From a virus: a DNA stretch of 47,008 bases. Location: the IMG/VR virus record IMGVR_UViG_3300045747_000694, positions 106,165-153,172 of that record, one strand, 5' to 3'. Of this stretch, positions 7,049-47,008 are shown piece by piece (positions within the stretch are counted from its first letter, which is position 1; every line of letters begins with the position of its first letter). The notes beneath the pieces are model-generated. The model ran no database searches. It saw only the letters and a list, made by a program, of their open reading frames with translations, and was not told the origin of the DNA. Both the position numbers and the translations under genes were made by a program.

Positions 7049-7101
7049 CGTTCCCAACCCACAGGGCCTGGTGTAACGTGCCCAGAAGAGGAGACTTCAC
7101 C

Positions 7102-7446
7102 ATGTCCAGCGACACCAAGTATCTCGCGTTCCGTGACGAGCTCACCAAGATCTCTGGCGAGTCCCGCATCGGTCGCAAGCCCATCGGCATCGAGAAGCTG
7201 CTGGAGAACGAGTCCGAGGTCACGGGCCTTCCCGAAGACTTCACGGCGGCGCCGGAAGTGGTCGAGGTGGCGCAGCAGGCCGCCAAGGCCCTCGTGAAGA
7301 TGTCGGCCTCCGTCAGCATCAAGGGCGGCCACGCCGCGCTCCTCGCCGCCGGCGCGGGCGGGGCGCTGTTCGCGCGCAAGGCCAACGAGGACCGCAAGAT
7401 GGGTCGCGCCATGCGGAAGCAGCAGCAGGCGCAGCAGGCGTACTGA
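7102..7446 (+). CDS. Small protein (114 aa) with a Gly-zipper-like hydrophobic segment and a basic C-terminus; paralog of the next gene
   Basis: RBS GAGGAG upstream of ATG 7102. N-terminal motif KYLAFRDELTKISGES is shared with the 7454 ORF (HTAFLDELQKISEVS). Confidence 0.6.
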   Translation: MSSDTKYLAFRDELTKISGESRIGRKPIGIEKLLENESEVTGLPEDFTAAPEVVEVAQQAAKALVKMSASVSIKGGHAALLAAGAGGALFARKANEDRKMGRAMRKQQQAQQAY

Positions 7447-7453
7447 GGCCAGC

Positions 7454-8065
7454 GTGCTCCGCGACCGAGTGCACACGGCCTTCCTGGACGAACTCCAGAA
7501 GATCAGCGAGGTGAGTCTCGCTGGTCTGTCGCATGAGAGCGTCCAGCGGATGGCGACTCCGGCGCAGCCCATGGAGACCGCGGGTCTCTCGAAGGCCCTC
7601 GCGGTCCTGGCGCGCTACGAAGGGATGCCGAAGATCGCGTTCGTCAACCGCGTCTCGAACCCCGATCTCCCGCAGATGCGGCGCACGACCGGGGTTCGGA
7701 AGAAGTCGGCGGACAAGGGCGCGGTCGAGCAGGGCAAGAACCTGGCCGGCTACACCGCCGGGGGCATGGGCATCGGGCGCATCGGAGGGTACGTGGCGCA
7801 GGGGCCCCACGCCGCGATCTCCGAGGCAGCGAAGAGGTCCGCCCACGGCAAGATGTGGTGGGGCACGGTGGCTGGAGGTGCCCTTGGCGCAGCGGAGTAC
7901 GCACGCAAGCGCATCAAGGCCAAGCAGCAAGAGAAGGTGGCCGCCCTCGTTCCCACCGTCCAGTCCCCTGCGAAGCAGCTGCACTACGGCCAGCAGACGG
8001 GGAAGACCCAGGCTCACGGGCTGAAGTCCGGCCCCTCCATCCACCGTCTCGCCACCAAGGTCTAG
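7454..8065 (+). CDS. Paralogous small protein (203 aa) with a Gly-rich amphipathic segment and a basic tail
   Basis: GTG start. Shares the N-terminal motif and the GGALxAxxYARK-type segment with the 7102 ORF. Confidence 0.55.
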   Translation: MLRDRVHTAFLDELQKISEVSLAGLSHESVQRMATPAQPMETAGLSKALAVLARYEGMPKIAFVNRVSNPDLPQMRRTTGVRKKSADKGAVEQGKNLAGYTAGGMGIGRIGGYVAQGPHAAISEAAKRSAHGKMWWGTVAGGALGAAEYARKRIKAKQQEKVAALVPTVQSPAKQLHYGQQTGKTQAHGLKSGPSIHRLATKV

Positions 8066-8074
8066 GAGACCACC

Positions 8075-8602
8075 ATGAAGCTCCGCCTCAAGAAGACCGC
8101 TGGCCGCTACGACACCGACGCCCCCTACCAGTCGTCGTTCATGCCCAGCGTCCCCGAGAACATGGCCTCTCAGCGGGACCGCGAGGAGCTCGACCGGTTC
8201 CACACAACCCTGGACTCCCGCGTGGACACTCAGGCGACCCTGAAGAAGCTCTTCGACTACGCCACCACCTCTCGCGAGAAGGAGCGCGCCAAGGCGAAGA
8301 AGCTCTTCACGCAGGCAGGCGTGGCCTCCACCAACTCCCCCGGCCTCCAGCCGAACGTGCTGGAGACGCCGGCGCTCGAGCAGGACGCGGGGCTGGCCCC
8401 TGCGGTGAAGACCGCCTCGGCGGAGTTCAGCATCGCCCCGCGCGTCGACGCCTGGTTCGAGAAGAACGCCAGCTCCCTGCTGACCGAGGCGCAGCGTCGC
8501 TACCCCGAGCTGCTGAAGGCCGCGGCCATCCCGTCCCCTTCCCTGAAGCGGGGGAAGAGCACCCCGGTCGTCGCGAGCAGCCTCTCCGGCGGCAGCGCGT
8601 AA
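8075..8602 (+). CDS. Hypothetical protein (175 aa)
   Basis: AGGAG RBS 7 nt upstream. GC3 bias. Confidence 0.65.
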   Translation: MKLRLKKTAGRYDTDAPYQSSFMPSVPENMASQRDREELDRFHTTLDSRVDTQATLKKLFDYATTSREKERAKAKKLFTQAGVASTNSPGLQPNVLETPALEQDAGLAPAVKTASAEFSIAPRVDAWFEKNASSLLTEAQRRYPELLKAAAIPSPSLKRGKSTPVVASSLSGGSA

Positions 8603-10567: not shown

Positions 10568-13500
10568 GTGGCTCTCCGCATCCCGAAGTTCATCCAGGAC
10601 CTGCTCAACGTCCCCACCGGGGCGCCGAACCACTACCTGCGATGGGACCCGCTGGCCAAGGAGATCATCAACGACCCTGGCCTCGGGGGCGGCGGCATCG
10701 GACCAGAGGGTCCCGCAGGTGCGACCGGTCCGCAGGGCGTTCCTGGCGTCACCGGTCCTCAAGGCCCGCAGGGACCAACGGGAGCCGTCGGTGCTACCGG
10801 CGCCGGCGTCACCGGCCCTCTCGGCCCGCAGGGTGCGACGGGCGCTCAAGGCGTCATCGGTCCGACGGGGGCACGGGGTCAGACTGGTGCCCAAGGTGAT
10901 GTCGGTCCCATCGGGCCGACTGGCGCTCAGGGTCCTCAAGGGGACCAGGGTGCGACCGGCCCTGTCGGCGCTGACGGCCCGCAGGGAGTGACTGGTGCGA
11001 CCGGTCCCGTTGGTCCTCAAGGCCAGACGGGGGCCGCCATCACGGGAGCTCAGGGTCTGCCCGGCGCGACAGGTCCGACCGGAGCAACGGGGGCGCGCGG
11101 CGCCACCGGCGTGACTGGGTCGGTCGGTCCGCAGGGGCCGACCGGAGCCGCCATCACTGGGGCGCAGGGGCCACAGGGAGTCACCGGTCCGACTGGCCCG
11201 ACCGGTGCCGTGGGCCCGCAAGGGCCGACTGGCGCCGCCATCACCGGGGCGGCCGGGCCGCAAGGGGTGACGGGCGCCACCGGTCCCACGGGGCCGCAGG
11301 GCCCCACCGGCGCGGCCATCACCGGAGCGACTGGCGTCACCGGCGCCCGCGGCGCCACGGGCGTGACCGGAGCCACTGGCCCAGCTGGTGCCACGGGTGC
11401 GACCGGCCCGGCCGGGCCGCAGGGTGTCACTGGCGCCACCGGGCCTACCGGCGCCGTCGGTCCGCAGGGGTCGACTGGCGCGGCCATCACGGGAGCACAA
11501 GGACCGCAGGGAGCCACCGGCGTGCCGGGCGTCACCGGCGCCACCGGGCCGATGGGCCCGGGCAGCCCCTCCGCCGGACCGACGGGAGCGCAGGGCGCCA
11601 CCGGCCCAGCTGGGCCGCAGGGCGTGACGGGTGCCACTGGCCCGACGGGGCCGAAGGGCGACACGGGAGCGGCCATCACCGGGGCAGCTGGCGTGACCGG
11701 CGTCACGGGCCCTGCCGGCCCGCAAGGCGTCACGGGGGCCACGGGCCCCACTGGCGCTCGCGGCGCGACCGGCGTCGACGGCGTCACGGGAGTGACTGGC
11801 CCAACGGGGGCTCGAGGTGCGACCGGCGTCGATGGGGTGACGGGCGCTACCGGGCCGACGGGTGCTCGCGGCGTCACGGGGGCGACCGGCCCAACAGGTG
11901 CTCCAGGCGTCCAGGGCGTCACGGGGGCGACCGGGCCGACCGGGGCGCAGGGAATCCAGGGGGTGACTGGGGCCACCGGTCCTACGGGCTCTCAGGGCCC
12001 TCAGGGGGTCACTGGCTCGACGGGTCCGACCGGGGCACCTGGCCCGCAGGGCGCGACCGGGCCAACTGGCCCGACAGGTGCGGTCGGTCCCCAGGGACCC
12101 ACGGGTGCCGCCATCACCGGAGCTGTGGGTCCGACGGGACCGGCCGGGCCAACCGGGCCGAAGGGTGACACCGGCGCCGCCATCACCGGCGCGCAGGGCG
12201 CCACCGGCGTTCAGGGGGTCCAGGGAGCCACGGGGCCCACCGGGCCCGCCGGCACGCAAGGGGTCACCGGCGCGACCGGGCCCACCGGGCCCGCCGGAGC
12301 TCAGGGTGCTACCGGTGCGACTGGGCCAGTTGGTCCGCAAGGTCCGACGGGTGCCGCGATCACGGGCGCCACCGGGCCGCAGGGGCCGCAAGGCAACCCC
12401 GGCGTCACGGGGCTCACCGGTGCGACAGGGCCGCAGGGATCGCAGGGCCCCACGGGAGCTCTCGGCCCCACCGGTCCTGCCGGTTCACAGGGAGTGACTG
12501 GCGCTACTGGTCCGACCGGAGCGCAGGGTCTTCAGGGCGCCACCGGGGCGACAGGTCCGACTGGGCCAGCGGGAGCGCAGGGGGTCACTGGCGCAACCGG
12601 CCCGACGGGCCCAGCTGGCGCGCAAGGGGTCACTGGTGCTACGGGGCCGACGGGACCGCAGGGCGTGCAGGGACCGACGGGCTCGGCCATCACCGGCGCA
12701 ACGGGGCCGGCTGGCCCGCAGGGACCGACAGGCACGCAGGGCATCACCGGGGCCACGGGACCGACCGGCCCTCAGGGCACGCAAGGCGTGACCGGGGCGA
12801 CCGGCCCGACCGGGCCGGCAGGCGCGCAGGGAGTCACCGGAGCTACTGGCCCGACTGGTCCCGCTGGTACGCAGGGCGTGACTGGGTTCACGGGCCCCGT
12901 CGGTCCTCAGGGTCCGACGGGAGCGGCTATCACTGGCGCTACCGGCCCTGTTGGTCCTCAGGGCCCGACCGGAGCGCAGGGCATCACCGGCGTCACCGGT
13001 GTCACCGGACCCACAGGTGCTCAGGGGCCTGCGGGCCCGACAGGGGCACAGGGGGTCACCGGGCTCACTGGGCCTGTCGGCCCGCAGGGGCCGACAGGTG
13101 CTGCCATCACGGGAGCCACCGGGCCCACCGGAGCGATCGGGCCTCAGGGTGTGACGGGGGCAACCGGGCCAACGGGCCCCGCGGGCGCAACCGGCGCAAC
13201 CGGCGTGACCGGCGCGCGAGGCGCGACAGGCATCACCGGAGCTACCGGACCCACGGGGCCTGCCGGTCCTCAAGGAGTGACCGGAGCCACCGGCCCTACC
13301 GGCCCGGGCGGCCCCACCGGCTCAGTCGGACCGCAGGGCGTCACCGGGGCAACGGGGCCCACCGGTCCGGCTGGTGCCGACGGTGCGACTGGCCCTGCTG
13401 GTGCCGGTCTCGATGGCGCCACTGGACCTATCGGTCCGGCCGGCGCTACTGGGGCGACCGGGCCAGCTGGTCCTCAGGGTGTCACGGGAGCAACGGGACC

Positions 13501-14371
13501 AACCGGGCCCGCCGGAGCAACCGGTGCGACCGGCGTGACGGGAGCTCGAGGCGCGACCGGGGTCACGGGAGCCACTGGCCCGCAGGGCTCTCCTGGCCCA
13601 ACGGGCGCCGCGATCACGGGAGCCATCGGACCGCAAGGCGTGACTGGCTGGACTGGCCCTGTCGGGCCGCAGGGTCCCACCGGAGCAGCCATCACTGGTG
13701 CAACCGGTCCTGCTGGTCCGACAGGTGCGACTGGCGCGATTGGGCCGACCGGTCCTGCCGGCAGCGGCGCAGTGAAGACGCTGAACCAGGCCTACTGGGA
13801 CGGCGGTACCGGCCCCGGCGGCGTGGGCGGAGAGATCGACCTCAACGCCACCATCGGACCGGTACGCCTCATCGGCTCCGGTGCGGCATCCGGCGGCGTC
13901 TACTTCCAGGTGGCAGACGCCGCCGGCGGCCTGCCTCTCTTCGAGGTGCGCGAGGGCGGTGGCCGCGGCGTCATCATGATCCCGCGCATCGAGCTCGGCG
14001 GCACGCCCCTCACCCCGGCCAACTTCTCGCTCTCTCGTTGGGGCTCGGGTGCGTCTTCCCCCGGCAACTACGGCGTGACGGGAGTCTCCTGCTCCGACGC
14101 CGGCGGGTCGTTCACCGTCGTCGCGGGGCAGACGGGGTACTCGCCAGCGCCCCAGATCACCATCAACTTCAAGGATGGTCCTCGAGCGGGCAACCCCTTC
14201 GTCCTCGCTCGCGTGATGAACCCGTGCATCCCTACGAACGCGAGCCTCTGGGGCTACAGCGTCATCAACCCGGTGCTCATCACCCAGAGCCCGACCTTCA
14301 TCACGATGATGATCCCGGGCTCCCCCACGAACCGCTGCTCCATCACCATCCAGTTCGTCTCCTTCGCATAA
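10568..14371 (+). CDS. Collagen-like fibre protein (1267 aa): about 1060 aa of Thr-rich Gly-X-Y repeats plus a roughly 200-aa beta-rich C-terminal globular domain (BclA-like architecture)
   Basis: Continuous G-P/A/V-T/Q triplets ([13 protein letters not shown]...). A recurrent GAAITGA interruption occurs about 14 times. Non-collagenous C-terminus begins around [18 protein letters not shown] start with an AGAGG RBS. Confidence 0.9.
10700..13760 (+). repeat. Triplet (9/18-nt) coding tandem repeats encoding the Gly-X-Y collagen-like region
   Basis: Reiterated GGN-CCN/GCN/GTN-ACN/CAG units. They create spurious long ORFs in all six frames. Confidence 0.85.
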
Positions 14372-36500: not shown

Positions 36501-37851
36501 CGTGGCCTTCATCATCTCGGAGGTGATGCAGTTCGGGGATGATGTCTCCGTCCTGGACTCCGTCGCGATGGTGCTCAGCCGTGGCGGGAGGTGGGGCGGG
36601 CTCGCCGGCCTCAACGACAACGTGGGGACCGGCCTCGGCACTCCCTTCATGTTCGACCAGATGGACTTCTCGGGCCACCACCTGATCCGCTGGGACGATG
36701 GCGTCTTCAAGCTGCGCCGGTCAGGGAAGGACGCCGTCGTTGCAGACGTCGACCACGTGACCGGCACGGTCAGCTTCTCGGGAGACATCGTCTCCACGGT
36801 CATGCCGGGCGCACTCATCAAGGTCGGCGACTACGTCATCTTCGGAAGCGGCCCGAACGCGGGGATCTACCCCATCACGGTGGTGACGGAGGGCGTGGGG
36901 GTGACCGTCGATACGACGGGGAAGTCGCTCACGTCGGGCATCGACCAGCTCTTCCTTGTCGCCAGGAAGATCAGCGAGGTCATCCGCTCTGGTCTCTGCA
37001 ACCGCATCCAGATCGTGGACGCCAGCGGGGTCATGGGGACAACGCGGTACGGGACCAACACCACGGACCCCTACGGCTTCGTCATCGACGCGGGGGACGT
37101 CATCGCCGACATCCCCAGCTCTGCTACGCGAACCGCACGATTCACGGTGACAGGGAACGTCTTGGACGGGGTCATGCCGGGAGACTGGCTCCTCACCTGC
37201 GGAGGTCGGCTCCTCATCACGGATGTGCAGGCCATGATCGTGACGGTCATCGGAGAGACAGACTTCACGCCGGAGGGGAACGCCCCTTACGTCATTGTCC
37301 GCCCCAGCCTGCTCTCTTCCCCATCGGAGAGCTCGTGGTCCATCGTCTCGGACGGCTCTTCGTACTCTTGCGACGATGACCTTCGGCTGATGGCCGACCC
37401 GGGCGACTACCTCGAGGTCGTGTCCCCTACCGGCTTCGCCGAGGTCTATGTCGTCGATGCGAAGTGGAACAACTACCTCCCCGTCCTCCCGGCGGACACC
37501 TACACCGTCCGGCTGAAGAAGAAGAACCGGCCGCAGGGGCCCCTCGGCTTCGACTTCATCCTGAGCGGCGACATCAACGACCAGGTGGACATCTACCTCC
37601 GGTCCCCGAACACCATCATCTCCGACGCCACGGGGACGATCACCATCCCGGCGCATGAGGCGCTCGACATGGGCGCGCAGATCGGGGACTTCATCCGCCT
37701 CTACGACATCACCCAGATCGACAACGGCTACGGCCCTGGGGTCTACCCAATCGCCTCCATCGCTGCCAGCGGAGGAGATGACGTTGTTGTACTCTCCGGC
37801 GGCATGGTTGACGGTGGGACGACCGCCTGGTCCCTTCTCAGGAGACGATGA
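33562..37851 (+). CDS. Giant structural protein (1429 aa) with an N-terminal PKD-like Ig domain; baseplate/fibre-associated
   Basis: PKD-type motif VRLDGSGSVNPTTTELVYTWAITAAP. Long beta-rich body. Operon position between baseplate and fibre genes. Confidence 0.8.
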   Translation: MATFNSGGFGTVSSLVERPTAVVVGLPSVAVLGATVRLDGSGSVNPTTTELVYTWAITAAPIGSKTPYEPFKQITEDWSSVWFSPDLVGEYIIELTVSSGNFESKAQTRISVRAILIPDGRAIVPDGKFIWSYLRDVWQQVEDRQIFETLWSALIQICGAELLKLYQFDFNKSIRDIQEKMQRRWLAYEPRLELDPAGMTAFLGNEEAGQGGSTQALGREAKAVIFASNELIVVEGSVIADVPPYLDILYSRSSSNVGEYRTMGTNAGATGYRINGSIPSTTADRVPGPTSVFTPQFPFQSRTWALQAPPAPQYALKMSMYPPTVDELSDIYSVAGSIGDVRVGDVAYIATGVNVGFYRITASTGIFIEVDRAPPSSSQPSDQVIIFRPVGIKFAPLPGAVSTSFTVPQATPASAIANLAKGRLITIGGRAYPVLRSTLDIRQPVPTFIITTDDSEVVTGRSNLNWRVPNTLVSPTVDFEAKGVTSGDLLLFDVRMEGGSGVAQVAAQVIGVHGYRLAFVVTTAVLSPGEGYTVSDSTIAEAFGALGIRSVTISPTGEVSFSGDAAVLYTFIKSGLFAQQFWNTEIDLSTGFVTPVGRFFVTPRAVIRNSKIPVDDTVLSVPVLQEWVAQPTLVEKDGKVYQKKGDVEYELPRRPVMLVEGNDYLTDGTTAFDDTVPFLTGTATLEVEGAGFLSRQVAPGDKVSIPTAVSLNLPYIVVEVLSEDKLLLSTMIPALLVPVTTERVVVTRRAGGKYLRLLPGGFTAAKPAPDRFWAEVSYFDNSDAIEANFGIMVGLKREDLDKITTRVSYRQAVAGLMFAYTRGSTIEKVRLGAQILLGLPFAEHRGIIRSMESNYRTDASGVPILGRLLIEDVDDVGVPAGIQRVYTYPIDNQSSDLSGVEVNPATGAIYAVDDIVEAFAPLAKGVGVSDYLTDPLNSQSSGISQLQKFHSFRLRANDNLFNIEEITLVSSFLRRITPSYVAFIISEVMQFGDDVSVLDSVAMVLSRGGRWGGLAGLNDNVGTGLGTPFMFDQMDFSGHHLIRWDDGVFKLRRSGKDAVVADVDHVTGTVSFSGDIVSTVMPGALIKVGDYVIFGSGPNAGIYPITVVTEGVGVTVDTTGKSLTSGIDQLFLVARKISEVIRSGLCNRIQIVDASGVMGTTRYGTNTTDPYGFVIDAGDVIADIPSSATRTARFTVTGNVLDGVMPGDWLLTCGGRLLITDVQAMIVTVIGETDFTPEGNAPYVIVRPSLLSSPSESSWSIVSDGSSYSCDDDLRLMADPGDYLEVVSPTGFAEVYVVDAKWNNYLPVLPADTYTVRLKKKNRPQGPLGFDFILSGDINDQVDIYLRSPNTIISDATGTITIPAHEALDMGAQIGDFIRLYDITQIDNGYGPGVYPIASIAASGGDDVVVLSGGMVDGGTTAWSLLRRR

Positions 37852-38489
37852 GCATGAACATCAGCGATGCAGTTCGAGTCAGCGACGCCGGCCTTGTCCG
37901 GGCCGGCACCACTGAGCGCAGCTGGGGCTCCGAGAGGAGCGTCGTCGAGGTGAAGGGCTGGGTGAAGCTGGTCCTGCGAGAGCGGGGCAAGAAGGTCACC
38001 GAGCGCGAGGGGCACAACGTCTGGACCAACACCGGGCGCGAGTTCCTGACCCAGCGCATCAGCCTCGACCTCGCCTCTCCCTCGAGCACCCTTCGGACGG
38101 ACGCGGTCGCCTTCGTCGGAGCCGGCATCGGGGCGAGCACGGAGGAGCCGGGGGTCCTGGCCTTGCAGGACCCGGTGGCCTACGACACCTCGCTCTTCCT
38201 CGCCGAGATCACGGGGGTGTCCTTCCCGGCCTACCCGGTCCGCACCACGGTCGAGTACCAGCGGACCTTCGCCGAGTCCGAGATCACCATCATCCCCGGC
38301 ACCGTCCTCATCTCGGAGCTCGGGCTCTTCACGAACGGCGACCCTGCCGGCACGCCCGCCAACGGCTTCGGCACCAGGAGCCGGGCCCTCAGCAGCTTCA
38401 CGGCGGCCCCCGTGGCGTACAAGAGCTTCGAGCCCGTGGCCAAGACCGAGAACATGCAGCTCGAAGTCTTCTGGCAGATCCGCTTCTAG
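37848..38489 (+). CDS. Tail-associated protein (213 aa); alternative start ATG 37854
   Basis: ATGA overlap with the upstream stop. The AGGAGA RBS is better spaced for ATG 37854. Confidence 0.6.
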   Translation: MSMNISDAVRVSDAGLVRAGTTERSWGSERSVVEVKGWVKLVLRERGKKVTEREGHNVWTNTGREFLTQRISLDLASPSSTLRTDAVAFVGAGIGASTEEPGVLALQDPVAYDTSLFLAEITGVSFPAYPVRTTVEYQRTFAESEITIIPGTVLISELGLFTNGDPAGTPANGFGTRSRALSSFTAAPVAYKSFEPVAKTENMQLEVFWQIRF

Positions 38490-43606: not shown

Positions 43607-44083
43607 ATGCTGAAGCTCGCCAAGGTCAGACCGCACCAGCAAGAGACGCAGCGGACCTGCTCTGCGGCCTGCCTTCGTGCTGTGCTGTTGCACCATGGCA
43701 AGGACGTACCCGAGAGCCTGCTGTCGAAGGCCATCGGGGTAGGGCACTACGGGGCCGAGCTCTACCAGATCGTGGGAGCGGCAAGGGCGTTGGGGTTCAC
43801 AGCGAAGCAAGTCGAGTTCAAGAGCTTGTCAGACGCCTTCGAGCTCCTCGAGAAGGACGTCCCGCTCATCTGCGATGTGCAGAGCTGGACGAAGAAGGGT
43901 AGTGGGCACTACGTCGTTCTCGTGAACGAGAGCGGTGGCCGGGTCAACATCATGGACCCGAACGTCTCAGGCAACTGGCGCACGATGTCCTCGAAGGACT
44001 TCGACAAGCGCTGGTGGGACGGAGACAACGTCTACAGGGGTCGCGTACTTCGTCGACCTTCTGTCATCGTTCGACCGAGGTAG
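43607..44083 (+). CDS. Peptidase C39-like (papain-fold) cysteine peptidase; candidate endolysin/peptidoglycan peptidase
   Basis: Catalytic-type motifs Q-x5-C (QQETQRTCSAACLRAVLLHHG), GHYVVL (His) and DPN...W, as in the C39-like peptidase family. Adjacent to holin/spanin-like genes. Confidence 0.65.
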   Translation: MLKLAKVRPHQQETQRTCSAACLRAVLLHHGKDVPESLLSKAIGVGHYGAELYQIVGAARALGFTAKQVEFKSLSDAFELLEKDVPLICDVQSWTKKGSGHYVVLVNESGGRVNIMDPNVSGNWRTMSSKDFDKRWWDGDNVYRGRVLRRPSVIVRPR

Positions 44084-44086
44084 CAC

Positions 44087-44263
44087 ATGGCAGGGACCGA
44101 CAAGCGCAAGCAGTCACTCTACTTCCCCGAGGACATGCTGGACGAGATGCAGGCGGAGGCCACGAGGCAGGACCGCTCGCTCTCCTGGATCGTGCAGCAG
44201 GCCTGGAAGGTGGCGAAGGAGCAGCTCGCCAAGTACCCAGGCATCAACGACCTGAGTCCGTGA
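44087..44263 (+). CDS. Ribbon-helix-helix (CopG/Arc-type) DNA-binding protein, 58 aa
   Basis: GAGGT RBS. KRKQSLYFPEDMLDEMQAEATRQDRSLSWIVQQAWKVAKEQL matches the RHH beta-strand / helix / helix pattern. Below the ORF-track size threshold. Confidence 0.5.
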   Translation: MAGTDKRKQSLYFPEDMLDEMQAEATRQDRSLSWIVQQAWKVAKEQLAKYPGINDLSP

Positions 44264-44313: not shown

Positions 44314-44332
44314 CCCTGAACAGCAGTGACAG

Positions 44333-44406
44333 TGCCCCCGGCAGGACTCGAACCTGCGGCCGTGCGCTTAGAAGGCGCCTGCTCTCGTCCTCTGAGCTAC
44401 GGGGGC
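44333..44406 (-). tRNA. tRNA-Arg (anticodon TCT)
   Basis: Manual cloverleaf: acceptor GCCCCCG/CGGGGGC; T-arm GCAGG-TTCGAGT-CCTGC; anticodon loop CTTCTAA; no encoded CCA. Confidence 0.75.
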
Positions 44407-44409
44407 ATG

Positions 44410-44500
44410 TGGCGGAGAGAGAGGGATTCGAACCCTCGCTTTGATGTGATCGCAGACTGGTTTAGCAAACCAGCGGCATGAGCCACTCGCCCATCTCTCC
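44410..44500 (-). tRNA. tRNA-Ser (GCT), class II with long variable arm, CCA encoded
   Basis: Acceptor GGAGAGA; anticodon arm CTGGT-TTGCTAA-ACCAG; T-loop TTCGAAT; discriminator G. Confidence 0.8.
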
Positions 44501-44503
44501 ATG

Positions 44504-44591
44504 TGGCGGAAACGGTGGGATTCGAACCCACGGAGACTTGCGCCTCGCCAGCTTTCCAAGCTGGTGCCTTGAGCCACTCGGCCACGTTTCC
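44504..44591 (-). tRNA. tRNA-Ser (GGA), class II, CCA encoded
   Basis: Anticodon arm CCAGC-TTGGAAA-GCTGG; long variable arm; T-arm GTGGG-TTCGAAT-CCCAC. Confidence 0.8.
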
Positions 44592-44595
44592 ATGA

Positions 44596-44683
44596 TGGCG
44601 GAAGAGGAAGGATTCGAACCTTCGAGGACTTGCGCCCTGCCCGCTTTCGAGACGGGTACCTTGAGCCACTCGGTCACTCTTCC
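44596..44683 (-). tRNA. tRNA-Ser (CGA), class II, CCA encoded
   Basis: Anticodon loop CTCGAAA; long variable arm; T-arm GAAGG-TTCGAAT-CCTTC. Confidence 0.75.
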
Positions 44684-44691
44684 AGAAGGAT

Positions 44692-44711
44692 GCCTCAGAG
44701 AAGGCTGAGGC
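44692..44711. promoter_or_regulatory. 7-bp hairpin (GCCTCAG agaagg CTGAGGC) in the only long (36-nt) spacer of the tRNA array
   Basis: Perfect inverted repeat between tRNA-Ser(CGA) and tRNA-Ser(TGA). Possible processing site or remnant. Confidence 0.35.
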
Positions 44712-44719
44712 GCCCTGTG

Positions 44720-44809
44720 TGGCGGAAGAGGAGAGATTCGAACTCTCGGGAAGCTTGCGCCTCCTGCGGGTTTCAAAGCCGCTGGTTTGAGCCACTCACC
44801 CACTCTTCC
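44720..44809 (-). tRNA. tRNA-Ser (TGA), class II, CCA encoded
   Basis: Anticodon loop TTTGAAA (one mismatch at the stem closure); long variable arm; T-arm GAGAG-TTCGAAT-CTCTC. Confidence 0.7.
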
Positions 44810-44810
44810 C

Positions 44811-45359
44811 TTACTCGTCGTGCTCGAGCTCTCCCTGCCAGTAGCCGTAGTCCGTGAGGAGCTGCTTCCAGGACTGGGGCACCTTCTTGTCCAGGAGGAA
44901 GGTGAGCTTCATCGTGGTCTGGAGGTGTTCCGGCTTCGCTGGGGTCGAGAGGATGTGCATCCTCGCCTGCGCCGGCGTGCAGTCCCTCTTCTTCTGGTTG
45001 CAAGGGGTGCAGCAGACGACGACGTTGGTCCAGTTGGTCTGGCCGCCTTGCGCCCGCGGCGTGACGTGGTCGTAGGTGAAGTCCGACCTCGGAACCTTGT
45101 TGCCGCAGTACTGGCAGCGGCCCTTGTCCCTGGCGTAGACGTTCTCTCGGCTGAACTTCACCGCCGGCTTCCTGCGCCGGATGGTGGAGAGGAACCGGAT
45201 GACCGAGGGCATCTTGAACTCCAAGGTCACCGACCTCACCGTCTTGCTCTCGTACTCCTGCACGACTTCGACCTTGCCCTCCCAGAGCAGGGTCACCGCG
45301 CGTTGCCAGGGAACCCGAGCCACGGGTTCATAGGCATTCGTCAGCACCAGCGTGTCCAT
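44811..45359 (-). CDS. HNH endonuclease (homing-endonuclease-like) embedded in the tRNA array
   Basis: HNH/zinc-finger motif CQYCGNKVPRSDFTYDHVTPRAQGGQTNWTNVVVCCTPCNQKK. Start at MDTLV with an AAAGGAGAG RBS. The longer track ORF would overlap tRNA genes. Confidence 0.8.
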   Translation of the reverse strand: MDTLVLTNAYEPVARVPWQRAVTLLWEGKVEVVQEYESKTVRSVTLEFKMPSVIRFLSTIRRRKPAVKFSRENVYARDKGRCQYCGNKVPRSDFTYDHVTPRAQGGQTNWTNVVVCCTPCNQKKRDCTPAQARMHILSTPAKPEHLQTTMKLTFLLDKKVPQSWKQLLTDYGYWQGELEHDE

Positions 45360-45388
45360 CGGGCTCTCCTTTCTTGGTGTCGTGCTGC

Positions 45389-45465
45389 GTGGTACCCCAG
45401 GAGGGACTCGAACCCTCATCGACGCGGAGTTTGAGTCCGCCGCATGTACCATTCTGCTACTGGGG
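45389..45465 (-). tRNA. Atypical tRNA: anticodon CAA (Leu by anticodon) but class-I structure with a short variable loop; CCA encoded
   Basis: Acceptor GCCCCAG/CTGGGGT; discriminator A; anticodon arm GCGGA-CTCAAAC-TCCGC; T-arm GAGGG-TTCGAGT-CCCTC; no long variable arm. Confidence 0.55.
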
Positions 45466-45468
45466 CGT

Positions 45469-45554
45469 GTGGTGGCCAAGGAGAGAGTCGAACTCTCACG
45501 GTGTTACCCGCACGCTTCTGAGGCGTGTGCGTCTACCAGTTCCGCCACTCGGCC
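45469..45554 (-). tRNA. tRNA-Leu (CAG), class II, CCA encoded
   Basis: Anticodon arm CACGC-CTCAGAA-GCGTG; 13-nt variable arm; T-arm GAGAG-TTCGACT-CTCTC. Confidence 0.8.
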
Positions 45555-45558
45555 ATGA

Positions 45559-45643
45559 TGGTACTCAGGAGGGGAGTCGAACCCCTACGGTGTTACCCGC
45601 CGGCACCTCAAGCCGGTGCGTCTACCAGTTCCGCCACCTGAGC
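45559..45643 (-). tRNA. tRNA-Leu (GAG), class II, CCA encoded
   Basis: Anticodon arm CCGGC-TTGAGGT-GCCGG; long variable arm; T-arm AGGGG-TTCGACT-CCCCT. Confidence 0.8.
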
Positions 45644-45652
45644 GTGAAGAAG

Positions 45653-45725
45653 TACAGGGCCTGGGAATCGAACCCAGCAACTCCGGAGTGTGGAACCGGG
45701 GGAGTCACCAGCTTCCTCGCCCTGC
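45653..45725 (-). tRNA. Atypical tRNA, probably tRNA-Val (CAC). The loop TCCACAC has C at position 33, and there is a T:T mismatch closing the stem.
   Basis: Acceptor GCAGGGC/GCCCTGT; T-arm CTGGG-TTCGATT-CCCAG; anticodon arm CCGG(T)-TCCACAC-(T)CCGG. Isotype uncertain; CCA/Trp is an alternative reading. Confidence 0.45.
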
Positions 45726-45731
45726 ATGAAG

Positions 45732-45803
45732 TTGCGAGCCAGGGATTCGAACCCTGATGTCCGTGGTTATGGGCCACGTGCCTTGCCAGTCGGCCAGCTC
45801 GCA
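45732..45803 (-). tRNA. tRNA with anticodon CAT (elongator Met or Ile2-lysidine type); loop CCCATAA has C33
   Basis: Acceptor TGCGAGC/GCTCGCA; anticodon arm CGTGG-CCCATAA-CCACG; T-arm CAGGG-TTCGAAT-CCCTG. Confidence 0.65.
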
Positions 45804-45808
45804 GTGAG

Positions 45809-45886
45809 TGGTTGCGGGCACGAGGAATCGAACCTCGCTGTTCTCGGGTTATGAGCCCGATGTGTAAGCCGTTTCACTCGCCCGCA
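45809..45886 (-). tRNA. Initiator-like tRNA-fMet (CAT), CCA encoded
   Basis: Anticodon arm TCGGG-CTCATAA-CCCGA (three G:C pairs) and 3' end ...CCCGCAACCA, identical to bacterial initiator tRNA. One extra nucleotide in the acceptor/T-stem junction makes the 5' boundary uncertain by about 1 nt. Confidence 0.65.
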
Positions 45887-45889
45887 GCT

Positions 45890-45966
45890 TGGTGCTCCTG
45901 GAGGGACTCGAACCCCCGGCCCGTTCTTTAGGAAAGAACTGCTCTTGTCCACTGAGCTACAGGAGC
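45890..45966 (-). tRNA. tRNA-Arg (CCT), CCA encoded
   Basis: Anticodon arm GTTCT-TTCCTAA-AGAAC; T-arm GGGGG-TTCGAGT-CCCTC. Confidence 0.8.
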
Positions 45967-45971
45967 GAAGA

Positions 45972-46049
45972 TGGTGCGCCCGGCCAGACTCGAACTGGCG
46001 GCCTCTGGTTTCGGAAACCAGCGCTCTCGTCCATCTGAGCTACGGGCGC
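45972..46049 (-). tRNA. tRNA-Arg (CCG), CCA encoded
   Basis: Anticodon arm CTGGT-TTCCGAA-ACCAG; T-arm GCCAG-TTCGAGT-CTGGC. Confidence 0.8.
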
Positions 46050-46056
46050 GAAGAAG

Positions 46057-46131
46057 TCTCCTCGGAGGGAGTCGAACCCCCGGCCTCATGGTTCGTAGCC
46101 ATGCGCTCTGGTCCAGCTGAGCTACGAGGAG
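46057..46131 (-). tRNA. tRNA-Arg (ACG), no encoded CCA
   Basis: Anticodon arm CATGG-CTACGAA-CCATG; T-arm GGGGG-TTCGACT-CCCTC. Confidence 0.75.
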
Positions 46132-46135
46132 ATGA

Positions 46136-46209
46136 TGGTGCTCCTAGAGAGAATCGAACTCTCGCCTCACCCTTACCAAGGGCGTGCTCTGCCTTAGAGC
46201 TACAGGAGC
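46136..46209 (-). tRNA. tRNA-Thr (GGT), CCA encoded
   Basis: Anticodon arm CGCCC-TTGGTAA-GGGTG; T-arm GAGAG-TTCGATT-CTCTC. Confidence 0.75.
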
Positions 46210-46213
46210 AAGA

Positions 46214-46288
46214 TGGTGGATGTGATCGGGGTCGAACCGACAACCTTCGGCTTGCAAAGCCGCTGCGCTCCCATTGCGCTACACACCC
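46214..46288 (-). tRNA. tRNA-Ala (TGC) with the G3:U70 identity pair, CCA encoded
   Basis: Acceptor GGGTGTG/CACATCC gives a G3-T70 wobble; anticodon loop TTTGCAA. Confidence 0.8.
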
Positions 46289-46294
46289 ATGAAG

Positions 46295-46366
46295 TGGACC
46301 CCCAGGGAGTTGAACCCTGACCTCTGCCTTGCCGAGGCAGCGTCCAGACCGCTAGACGAGGAGCCC
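46295..46366 (-). tRNA. tRNA-Ala (GGC) with G3:U70; loop TCGGCAA has C33; no encoded CCA
   Basis: Acceptor GGGCTCC/GGGGTCC (G3-T70); anticodon arm CTGCC-TCGGCAA-GGCAG; T-arm CAGGG-TTCAACT-CCCTG. Confidence 0.6.
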
Positions 46367-46372
46367 ATGAAG

Positions 46373-46445
46373 TACGCGTGGAGGGAATCGAACCCCCGAT
46401 CTCTGCCATGTCAAGGCAGCACTCTGGCCGCTGAGCTACACGCGC
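46373..46445 (-). tRNA. tRNA-Val (GAC), no encoded CCA
   Basis: Anticodon arm CTGCC-TTGACAT-GGCAG; T-arm GGGGG-TTCGATT-CCCTC. Confidence 0.75.
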
Positions 46446-46449
46446 ATGC

Positions 46450-46525
46450 TGGTGGACCCGAGGGGAGTTGAACCCCTTGCCTCTCGGATGCGAACCGAGC
46501 GCTCTACCAGGTGAGCTACGGGCCC
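46450..46525 (-). tRNA. tRNA-Ala (CGC) with G3:U70, CCA encoded
   Basis: Acceptor GGGCCCG/CGGGTCC; anticodon arm CTCGG-TTCGCAT-CCGAG. Confidence 0.8.
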
Positions 46526-46531
46526 ATGAAG

Positions 46532-46607
46532 TGGTGCGCCCTCTCGGAGTCGAACCGAGATGTCTCGCTCTTCAGGCGAGTGCTTGAACCGTCACAGCCA
46601 AAGGCGC
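46532..46607 (-). tRNA. tRNA-Phe (GAA), CCA encoded
   Basis: Anticodon arm CTCGC-CTGAAGA-GCGAG; T-arm CTCGG-TTCGACT-CCGAG. Confidence 0.75.
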
Positions 46608-46614
46608 AAAGGAA

Positions 46615-46689
46615 TGGCGGGGCCACGGGGAGTTGAACCCCGCTCTCCGGCGTGACAGGCCGGTGTCCTGACCGATGAACGATGACCCC
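46615..46689 (-). tRNA. tRNA-Asp (GTC), discriminator G, CCA encoded
   Basis: Anticodon arm CCGGC-CTGTCAC-GCCGG; T-arm CGGGG-TTCAACT-CCCCG. Confidence 0.8.
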
Positions 46690-46694
46690 TCTGC

Positions 46695-46768
46695 TGGGGT
46701 GAGGTACGGGAGTTGAACCCGCGTTGCGAGAGCCACAATCTCGTGTCCTACCGTTGGACGAACCTCAC
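46695..46768 (-). tRNA. tRNA-His (GTG), discriminator C73, CCA encoded; no encoded G-1
   Basis: Anticodon arm CGAGA-TTGTGGC-TCTCG; acceptor GTGAGGT/ACCTCAC; the base preceding G1 is T. Confidence 0.75.
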
Positions 46769-46771
46769 ACT

Positions 46772-46845
46772 TGGTCCCCCAGCCAGGGGTCGAACCTGGA
46801 CCTGTCGCTTATCAGGCGACTGCTCTACCTCTGAGCTACCGGGGG
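46772..46845 (-). tRNA. tRNA-Ile (GAT), CCA encoded
   Basis: Anticodon arm GTCGC-CTGATAA-GCGAC; T-arm CCAGG-TTCGACC-CCTGG. Confidence 0.8.
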
Positions 46846-46849
46846 AAGA

Positions 46850-46926
46850 TGGTCAAGGTGAGAGGAATCGAACCTCCGGCCTCCTGGTCCCGAACCAGGC
46901 GCTCTGCCAGTCTGAGCTACACCTTG
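46850..46926 (-). tRNA. tRNA-Pro (CGG), CCA encoded
   Basis: Anticodon arm CCTGG-TTCGGGA-CCAGG; T-arm GGAGG-TTCGATT-CCTCT. Confidence 0.8.
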
Positions 46927-46933
46927 ATGAAGA

Positions 46934-47008
46934 TGGTCAGCGTGAGAGGATTCGGACCTCCGGCCTCCTGCACCCCAAGCAGGCGCTCTACCAGGCTGAG
47001 CTACACGC
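46934..47008 (-). tRNA. tRNA-Pro (GGG), 5'-truncated by the window edge; unusual T-loop TCCGAAT
   Basis: Anticodon arm CCTGC-TTGGGGT-GCAGG; CCA encoded; the last 2 nt of the 5' acceptor strand lie outside the window. Confidence 0.65.

Follow-up and report, generated by a model that had tools for sequence, protein, structure and literature searches.

The closest described counterparts of the locus treated here are the tRNA array units or L-arrays, in which about 20-43 tRNA genes lie on the same strand around an embedded homing-type endonuclease and which are spread by horizontal transfer (PMC8421152, PMC4758250). They are recognized by at least 20 tRNA genes at a density of at least two per kilobase (kb) on one strand, often accompanied by a homing endonuclease. 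The stretch of DNA analyzed in this work, in the following called the window, comprises 47,008 nucleotides (nt) of the viral record IMGVR_UViG_3300045747_000694 (IMG/VR; positions 106,165 to 153,172), and it ends in an array (44332..47008, minus strand) with 25 tRNA genes in 2.7 kb and an HNH endonuclease gene inside, as is characteristic of L-arrays. Unlike those, the window array resides in a phage genome and adjoins structural genes. The original prediction, made from the sequence alone, had drawn attention to a tRNA with the anticodon CAA and a short variable loop, to three tRNAs that carry C instead of the near-universal U at position 33 (C33) and to a tRNA-Pro(GGG) with a deviating T-loop, and it had considered lineage-specific features, decoding-altering variants or decaying duplicates as explanations. 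We think that the unusual genes are probably working tRNAs of a horizontally mobile, phage-borne array, and that their oddities are typical of the lineage and do not represent defects; this explains the observations as a whole best.

Counterparts of the single oddities have been described as well. In Streptomyces coelicolor, the CAA isoacceptor is the one tRNA-Leu of type I. Its variable loop is 5 nt long (ACAGC), and the single leucyl-tRNA synthetase (LeuRS) of this organism leucylates this native tRNA, whereas the LeuRS of Escherichia coli does not (Fan et al., NAR 2019, PMC6614811). The array tRNAs of cluster C1 mycobacteriophages include a Val(cac) with the loop UCCACAC, identical to that of the window, and a Val(gac) with the loop UCGACAC, which score 61 and 59 bits in tRNAscan-SE and occur in 88-89% of 161 phages, and six of the seven Leu tRNAs in that catalogue have class-I length (van den Berg et al., eLife 2023, PMC10264068). 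The differences lie in number and in kind: C33 is found in 2 of 42 tRNAs of the C1 phages versus 3 of 25 in the window, the part of the C1 catalogue compared here contains neither an Ala(GGC) nor a Met with C33, and that paper does not single out position 33. The descriptions of L-arrays in PMC8421152 and PMC4758250 likewise mention neither C33 nor short-armed Leu tRNAs; the arrays that we sampled contain both.

Conservation of the array in a second phage

The tRNA genes were called as cloverleaves by ARAGORN and scored with the Rfam covariance model RF00005 (Infernal; gathering score 29 bits), which matches 24 of the 25 genes. Both methods reproduce the folds that had been drawn by hand, with the genes on the minus strand and the coordinates within one base, and ViennaRNA folding offers no alternative register that would restore U33 in the flagged tRNAs. 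An exact search for the anticodon arm of the C33 tRNA-Ala led to a 209-kb viral contig, of which 20 kb were analyzed (L030). This region contains an array of 42 tRNAs with the gene order of the window, shared from Pro(GGG) through Arg(UCU). Each flagged tRNA has a positional ortholog there with 70-83% identity, and every flagged feature of an anticodon loop or variable arm is kept, accompanied by compensatory changes in the stems. C33 itself is retained in all three tRNAs, each of which has undergone four to seven compensatory double changes. Because they are conserved in a syntenic array together with such double changes, the C33 tRNAs do not look like decaying copies. As judged from these substitution patterns, purifying selection has acted on the cloverleaf of the three C33 tRNAs and of the short-armed tRNA-Leu since the two phages diverged. 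The comparison with a related phage array, which the original prediction had called for, thus favors lineage-specific features, and the same features recur in actinophages and other mobile arrays.

Two further IMG/VR contigs (L001 and L002) share about 83% nt identity with the window across the flanking genes. The last conserved genes before the array encode a small, weakly supported ribbon-helix-helix protein and a C39-family cysteine peptidase (43607..44263, plus strand; PF03412, 2e-18), which is 94% identical in these contigs. Synteny ends exactly at 44255 and no tRNA is found within 10 kb beyond, which indicates that the array is a variable module that is gained or lost as a whole. Among deposited phages, neither a megablast search with the array, nor tblastn with ORF1 (ORF, open reading frame), nor blastn with the Val(CAC) and C33 Met genes gave a match, and exact 17-mer scans of viral contigs for the CAA and Val arms returned only unrelated DNA and one class II tRNA-Leu.

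The short-armed tRNA-Leu(CAA)

The tRNA with the anticodon CAA (45390..45466, minus strand) is 77 nt long including an encoded CCA end and scores 57.8 bits, well above the gathering score. As had been seen in the manual fold, its variable region is short, consisting of six unpaired nucleotides (GUCGAU). It has a D-stem of 3 base pairs (bp), G13.A22, U8-A9, the loop CUCAAAC, G1.U72 and A73, and its D-arm GAAUGGUA, the discriminator A73 and the anticodon arm resemble those of leucine tRNAs. The L030 ortholog has a canonical Leu D-arm, likewise the loop CUCAAAC, and an unstructured variable region of 7 nt. A comparison of the window, L030 and the Streptomyces phage Jay2Jay reveals compensatory changes in 8 of 20 pairs, without a single broken pair.

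The statement that bacterial tRNA-Leu is class II, which had made this gene appear anomalous, is wrong for the CAA isoacceptor, as the native type I tRNA of S. coelicolor demonstrates. The type I features named by Fan et al. (PMC6614811) are largely found in the phage gene: CAA is combined with a stemless short variable loop (6 nt in the window, 7 nt in L030, 6 nt in Jay2Jay), and the U8:A14 pair and the A73-C74-C75-A76 end are represented by U8, A14, A73 and the encoded CCA. The variable loop of exactly 5 nt is not found, since GUCGAU has 6 nt. A pattern scan that covered one genome per species and used class-I spacing between CUCAAA and the T-arm gave at least 103 class-I tRNA(CAA) genes of 73-79 nt called by ARAGORN among at least 120 matches listed. 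Among these listed matches, the genes are mostly single chromosomal genes of Actinomycetota, from Streptomyces, Kitasatospora, Micromonospora, Nocardioides, Bifidobacterium, Planktophila and other genera. The Streptomyces copies have an ACAGC or CCAGC loop and the acceptor GCCCCNG...CNGGGGU-A with G1.U72, as in the window gene; those with the reported ACAGC loop served as the stand-in for the S. coelicolor tRNA in sequence comparisons. Common to the window gene and the S. coelicolor and other actinobacterial type I genes are thus CAA, the short unpaired variable loop, U8, A14, the 3-bp D-stem, CUCAAAC, A73 and the acceptor form GCCCCNG/CNGGGGU, with G1.U72 shared with the Streptomyces copies. 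The window gene differs in that its D-arm GCAGAAUGGUACAUGC is closer to class II Leu D-arms, that it encodes CCA, and that it shares no more than 56-58 of 74 positions with the nearest cellular copies.

The closest sequences come from phages. In a low-stringency blastn search, the window gene is about 85% identical over its full length, without gaps, to an annotated tRNA-Leu in 75 Streptomyces phages (Jay2Jay, StarPlatinum and others; Samistivirus and relatives). The Jay2Jay gene agrees with the window in the D-arm, G26, the loop and the 6-nt variable region (GUCAAU versus GUCGAU). Beyond this gene, the window genome shows no relationship to these phages at the DNA level, nor does ORF1 as a protein, and in Jay2Jay the tRNAs are scattered between numerous small ORFs. 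In its architecture and its sequence family, the window tRNA(CAA) is therefore a phage copy of a known kind of tRNA-Leu that has been charged experimentally. By analogy with the leucylation of the native type I tRNA by S. coelicolor LeuRS (PMC6614811), an actinobacterial-type host should be able to charge it for the rare UUG codons, and the tRNA type hints at such a host, with a LeuRS that accepts these tRNAs. Jay2Jay (L031/L032; positions 87588..87896 and 95284..95355 of its record) also has two annotated tRNA-Leu(tag) of 75-76 nt and an annotated 72-nt tRNA-Tyr, which are class-I lengths for tRNAs that are normally class II; the 72-nt tRNA-Tyr is not called by ARAGORN.

For this gene, a recoding tRNA or a non-Leu tRNA that reads UUG had also been proposed. 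When the ORFs of the window are aligned to L002, 10 of 12 in-frame UUG codons face a Leu codon (CUN in six cases), so that recoding is unsupported. Likewise, codons for Val, Ala and Met stand opposite GUG, GCC and AUG in the related phage, which also speaks against the decoding-altering variants of the original prediction. These alignments show that all four codons keep their standard meanings in the phage. The codons of the Val and Ala tRNAs, GUG and GCC, are frequent, at 32 and 44 per thousand.

The tRNAs with C33

The C33 tRNA with the anticodon CAU (45731..45803, minus strand; 52.1 bits, above the gathering score) has the loop CCCAUAA with C32-C33, U1-A72, A73 and no encoded CCA. Between the window and L030 its anticodon stem changes from CGUGG/CCACG to CUCGC/GCGAG and U1-A72 becomes A1-U72, while C33 is kept; when a third contig (L022) is included, the loop is still retained, 12 of 20 pairs are compensatory and none is broken. 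The gene most likely encodes an elongator tRNA-Met. The hallmarks of an initiator tRNA-fMet are A11:U24, a mismatched 1:72 position and a run of three G-C pairs at the base of the anticodon stem; this identity was rejected on the basis of U1-A72, the stem CGUGG/CCACG with two G-C pairs by the loop, and C11:G24. A tRNA-Ile2 that is modified with lysidine was also considered, and this role is unlikely because AUA is absent from the 10,233 codons sampled in long ORFs of the window. The eukaryotic cytoplasmic initiator tRNA-Met has the anticodon loop CCCAUAA with C33, identical to that of the window gene. In contrast to the eukaryotic initiator, however, the window gene has neither A54/A60 nor the three G-C pairs of the anticodon stem, it has U1-A72 and not A1-U72, and its T-loop is of the bacterial type. 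Because of these differences in the acceptor, the anticodon stem and the T-loop, it is not an initiator by bacterial or eukaryotic standards. An exact search for the C32-C33 CAU arm gave 19 viral contigs, in 16 of which it was called as tRNA-Met. One of the viral contigs (L012, 787..858) carries a eukaryote-type initiator with A1-U72, a GAUCGAAAC T-loop and the loop CCCAUAA, which suggests that a eukaryotic virus or a contaminant is present among these matches.

The tRNA-Ala(GGC) with C33 (46294..46366, minus strand; 50.9 bits, above the gathering score) has the loop UCGGCAA and no encoded CCA, and the Ala identity elements G3.U70 and A73 are both present. In L030, C7-G66 is replaced by U7-A66 and three T-stem pairs are swapped, while C33 is kept. 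Of 14 metagenome matches to the C33 Ala arm, 10 are coincidental coding sequence and 4 are tRNA arrays; in L030 and in these 4 metagenomic arrays, the arm with C33 sits on otherwise different Ala bodies. Among five aligned C33 tRNA-Ala(GGC) sequences, G3.U70 is invariant, 10 of 22 pairs are compensatory and none is broken.

The tRNA-Val(CAC)-like gene (45652..45725, minus strand; ARAGORN) has C33 in the loop UCCACAC, lacks an encoded CCA, and contains the U31.U39 mismatch closing the anticodon stem that had been described in the original prediction. Its RF00005 score lies below a 28.3-bit tRNA-Sec hit and hence under the gathering score, and the L030 ortholog (12665..12740) is also sub-threshold, with a tRNA-Sec hit of 23.1 bits. 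In both phages G8 replaces the near-invariant U8 and the D-stem is imperfect, with 3 bp in the window and a U11.C24 mismatch in L030. The ortholog has the loop CCCACAC and six compensatory double changes relative to the window, and its proper U31-A39 pair indicates that the U.U mismatch is private to the window copy. The pairs were counted in a hand-set register, as RNAalifold on the two sequences was misled by a MAFFT gap into a non-cloverleaf fold. The minimum free energy (MFE) fold of the window gene is not a cloverleaf either; ARAGORN still calls one. The cloverleaf of Val(CAC) thus appears to covary, yet this is the least canonical of the flagged genes and the one whose activity is least certain. 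A low covariance score, by which defective units were to be recognized, is hence found for Val(CAC), whereas Leu, Met and Ala pass with 50.9-57.8 bits.

In all three C33 genes the encoded CCA is absent and CUU follows instead. C33 occurs in three of the six CCA-less tRNA genes of the window versus none of the 19 that encode CCA (Fisher p = 0.009), an association that suggests two tRNA subsets of different origins within one array.

Recurrence of C33 in other arrays

The occurrence of C33 was examined in 29 arrays, which were selected because they contain a CAA tRNA of class I or the Ala arm with C33 and which have common ancestry, so that the sample is biased and the frequencies are indicative and no census. 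Among 604 tRNAs with well-paired anticodon stems, 76 (12.6%) have C33, and they are distributed unevenly by isoacceptor. C33 is frequent in Val-CAC (3 of 3), Pro-GGG (3 of 3), Leu-GAG (8 of 14), Val-UAC (6 of 12) and Glu-CUC (8 of 17), and it never occurs in Arg-CCU, Arg-CCG, Arg-ACG, His, Trp, Gln, Cys, Lys-UUU or Leu-CAA. In the genome loci from the CAA scan, 59 of 437 tRNAs in 20 dense arrays have C33 versus 0 of 91 in ordinary chromosomal loci, compared with which the 3 of 25 in the window are also more than expected by chance. The 20 dense arrays come from Planctomycetota, Acidobacteriota, one Actinomycetota chromosome, a cyanobacterium and others. In L030, Pro(GGG) and Ile(GAU) have C33 in addition, giving 6-7 of its 42 tRNAs; an unrelated viral array (L008) has four C33 tRNAs, and Jay2Jay has one, a Val(GAC) with the loop UCGACAC. 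When the C33 Val(CAC) tRNAs from the C1 phages, a planctomycete array, L030 and the window are compared, no more than 45-54 of about 80 positions agree. The loop UCCACAC of the window gene recurs unchanged in the planctomycete array as well as in the C1 phages. We found no published statement on C33 in phage or array tRNAs in the searchable literature.

Dense arrays that are rich in C32-C33 tRNAs are also present in bacterial contigs. A 5.8-Mb contig of an Actinomycetota metagenome-assembled genome (L062, 1763..4640) has such an array with C32-C33 in 10 of 33 tRNAs, and similar arrays are found in the contigs L055, L063, L069, L097 and L124. The carriers in bacterial arrays include Asp and Asn tRNAs with GUN anticodons (and Tyr in L124), with several Leu tRNAs of class-I length alongside. 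In GUN tRNAs, C33 would break the U33-G34-U35 motif that is used by the tRNA-guanine transglycosylase.

Possible reasons for the retention of C33

If the array supplies working tRNAs, alanyl-tRNA synthetase should accept Ala(GGC) via G3.U70 and A73, methionyl-tRNA synthetase should accept the C33 CAU tRNA via the anticodon and A73, and C33 would be tolerated by the ribosome, as in eukaryotic initiator tRNAs. The altered loop could then make particular isoacceptors poor substrates for host enzymes that act on the anticodon loop, with the consequence that C33 is retained. The first candidates to consider for such enzymes would be anticodon nucleases of the VapC, PrrC or colicin type, and the phage could go on translating the abundant GUG, GCC and AUG codons once the host tRNAs have been cleaved. 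We tentatively regard such an evasion of anticodon-loop enzymes, by which phage translation is sustained, as the most likely reason for the retention of C33. A comparable proposal has been made by van den Berg et al. (2023, PMC10264068), that substitutions in phage tRNA loops spare them from host anticodon nucleases; in that work, too, nuclease resistance is a prediction. A tRNA of that kind would be phage-encoded and have an anticodon loop that differs from that of the host at or close to a nuclease site. The C33 tRNAs of the window are phage-encoded, and their C33 differs from the near-universal U33, to which the ordinary cellular loci gave 0 exceptions in 91. RNA-repair genes provide a matching context: the L030 array holds an RlaP-family RNA-repair nucleotidyltransferase, the tRNA region of Jay2Jay contains a T4-like RNA ligase and a polynucleotide kinase, and L-arrays are co-regulated with RtcB in Anabaena (PMC8421152). 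Because such genes lie in or beside related arrays and because of this co-regulation, the evasion framework is compatible with the genomic context. As a wider generalization, C33 might be a selected, isoacceptor-specific hallmark of mobile tRNA arrays of phages and of bacterial L-arrays in several phyla, often together with short-armed Leu tRNAs, where both would be adaptations that render the mobile set orthogonal to anticodon nucleases or modification enzymes of the host; we consider this rather doubtful.

Several observations weigh against working tRNAs that are retained for evasion. The phage loops were set against the near-universal U33, whereas evasion would require a difference from the loops of the host, and the array sample is biased by its selection for class-I CAA or C33 Ala arm loci and by shared ancestry. 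Val(CAC) is sub-threshold in both phages, has G8, and its stem is closed by U.U in the window. We know of no nuclease that targets Val(CAC), Ala(GGC) or elongator Met. The only nuclease data found for position 33 concern the gamma-toxin of Kluyveromyces lactis, whose cleavage is unaffected by U33C (PMC2275089), and in the phage Sf14 it is positions 32 and 38 of the tRNA loops that are altered and not position 33, and these changes were considered to be unrelated to nuclease evasion (PMC12482277). Finally, the variable region of Leu(CAA) has 6-7 nt versus 5 nt in S. coelicolor, where its length is important for charging; in that work the loop was subjected to deletions and to substitutions of single bases or was exchanged for the long one of tRNA-Leu(UAA), without single-nucleotide insertions (PMC6614811).

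The main rival to evasion is the neutral persistence of an ancestral state, in which the tRNAs work, and C33 and the short Leu arm are nearly neutral features that bring no advantage and are tolerated under the relaxed constraint on supernumerary tRNAs. C33 is indeed gained or lost between close relatives, as Pro(GGG) and Ile(GAU) have C33 in L030 and U33 in the window, the arrays are spread horizontally from a common ancestry (PMC8421152), and the three window genes all belong to the CCA-less subset, which suggests a shared origin; the missing effect of U33C on gamma-toxin cleavage fits as well. However, C33 is strongly isoacceptor-specific and not scattered, the C33 loop of Val(CAC) is kept in actinophages and a planctomycete array among tRNAs that are identical to each other at only 45-49 of about 80 positions, and C33 Val loops occur in 88-89% of the 161 C1 phages. 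A neutral transition between U and C would not be expected to remain fixed over such divergence, and we therefore think that drift is rather unlikely to be the explanation.

That some or all of the flagged tRNAs are decaying, non-functional duplicates is very improbable. The features of Val(CAC) enumerated above, with its 3-bp D-stem and its non-cloverleaf MFE fold, the C55 of Pro(GGG), which is not conserved, and the missing CCA of the three C33 genes would be in line with decay. Against this stand the many compensatory changes without a broken pair in Leu, Met and Ala, the six double changes in Val, and Rfam scores of 51-58 bits for three of the four. Moreover, the window has no duplicate isoacceptors for these anticodons, which argues that the flagged tRNAs are not redundant copies. 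The suspicion of decaying duplicates in the original prediction can thus be dropped for Leu, Met and Ala and survives as a minor possibility for the window copy of Val(CAC) and for C55 of Pro(GGG).

We also give little credence to a non-translational role, in which the variant tRNAs would serve as decoys or inhibitors of host tRNA-directed defense proteins. A phage tRNA that neutralizes PARIS is documented (PMC11464382), and Val(CAC) is the one that lies farthest from a canonical tRNA. However, these tRNAs have retained their acceptor stems, discriminator bases and identity elements (G3.U70 and the CAU anticodon), as expected for aminoacylated tRNAs, and they read codons that occur frequently in the phage.

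LeuRS does not read the anticodon and changes of U33 can affect the behavior in the A-site, which gives formal grounds for a phage-specific recoding, be it by a non-Leu amino acid on the CAA tRNA or by C33-induced frameshifting or misreading. This formal possibility is very unlikely, as UUG, GUG, GCC and AUG are matched by Leu, Val, Ala and Met codons, respectively, in the alignment to the related phage, the CAA tRNA family is annotated as, and was experimentally shown to be, tRNA-Leu (PMC6614811), and G3.U70 is invariant in the Ala tRNA.

Other tRNAs and neighboring genes

The tRNA-Pro(GGG) (46934..47008+, minus strand) is cut at its 5' end by the window and reaches 53.1 bits although truncated, which is above the gathering score. 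The unusual T-loop TCCGAAT that had been noted for this gene can be read straight from the sequence (UCCGAAU, with C55), and its anticodon loop UUGGGGU is normal. In L030 the ortholog has the T-loop UUCGAAU, but an anticodon loop with C33. C55 is also absent from the paralogous Pro(CGG) of the window, whose T-stem is identical to that of Pro(GGG). C55 thus looks like a private substitution of the window genome, for which there is no evidence of a function. A second tRNA with the anticodon CAU is initiator-like (45809..45886, minus strand; ARAGORN, 41.7 bits). Its anticodon stem is GGG/CCC, it has U1-A72, and its acceptor stem either comprises 8 bp or forms a 13-bp stack together with the T stem. 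Its L030 ortholog (12278..12364) has the bacterial C1xA72 mismatch and is 87 nt long owing to 17 nt that are inserted into the variable region. As internal comparators, we used two canonical class II tRNA-Leu genes, CAG (45470..45554) and GAG (45559..45643), which both lie on the minus strand and are supported by ARAGORN and Rfam.

The array is truncated by the end of the window, so that its 25 tRNAs are a minimum, and its single interruption is the HNH endonuclease gene (44811..45371, minus strand; Pfam HNH_5, 4.5e-16), which lies directly downstream of tRNA-Leu(CAA). An exact-protein look-up of this gene gave no record. An HNH_5 gene also adjoins Leu(CAA) in L030 (14767..15309), which recalls the homing endonucleases in the tRNA clusters of T4 and in L-arrays. 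In addition to its RlaP-family gene (PF10127, 3.6e-14; 4210..5172), the L030 array contains a gene for an AAA/STAND-like ATPase (6812..8299).

The window as a whole resembles a contig of a tailed phage with about 65% guanine-plus-cytosine (GC) and encodes a baseplate J domain protein in addition to the HNH endonuclease. Between 10001 and 14000 the GC content rises to 72-75% versus about 65% elsewhere in the window, coinciding with an ORF of 1267 amino acids at 10568..14371. A 97-nt tRNA-Arg(cct) that ARAGORN calls at the junction of two long ORFs (37797..37893, plus strand) has no Rfam support and is probably a false positive.

Implications for phage tRNA arrays

The short-armed tRNA-Leu(CAA) is of a type already described for Streptomyces and for Streptomyces phages, and the window thereby loses its suspected case of recoding. 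The isoacceptor-specific occurrence of C33 in mobile tRNA arrays, on the other hand, is possibly an under-described regularity. The conserved C33 variants provide concrete examples for the debate on whether phage tRNAs serve the supply of codons or the escape from tRNA-cleaving defenses, and they name the isoacceptors that can be tested against candidate nucleases, which are Val-CAC, Val-GAC, Ala-GGC, Met-CAU, Pro-GGG, Leu-GAG and Glu-CUC. If it is true that C33 protects these tRNAs, this would provide a simple design rule for nuclease-resistant tRNAs.

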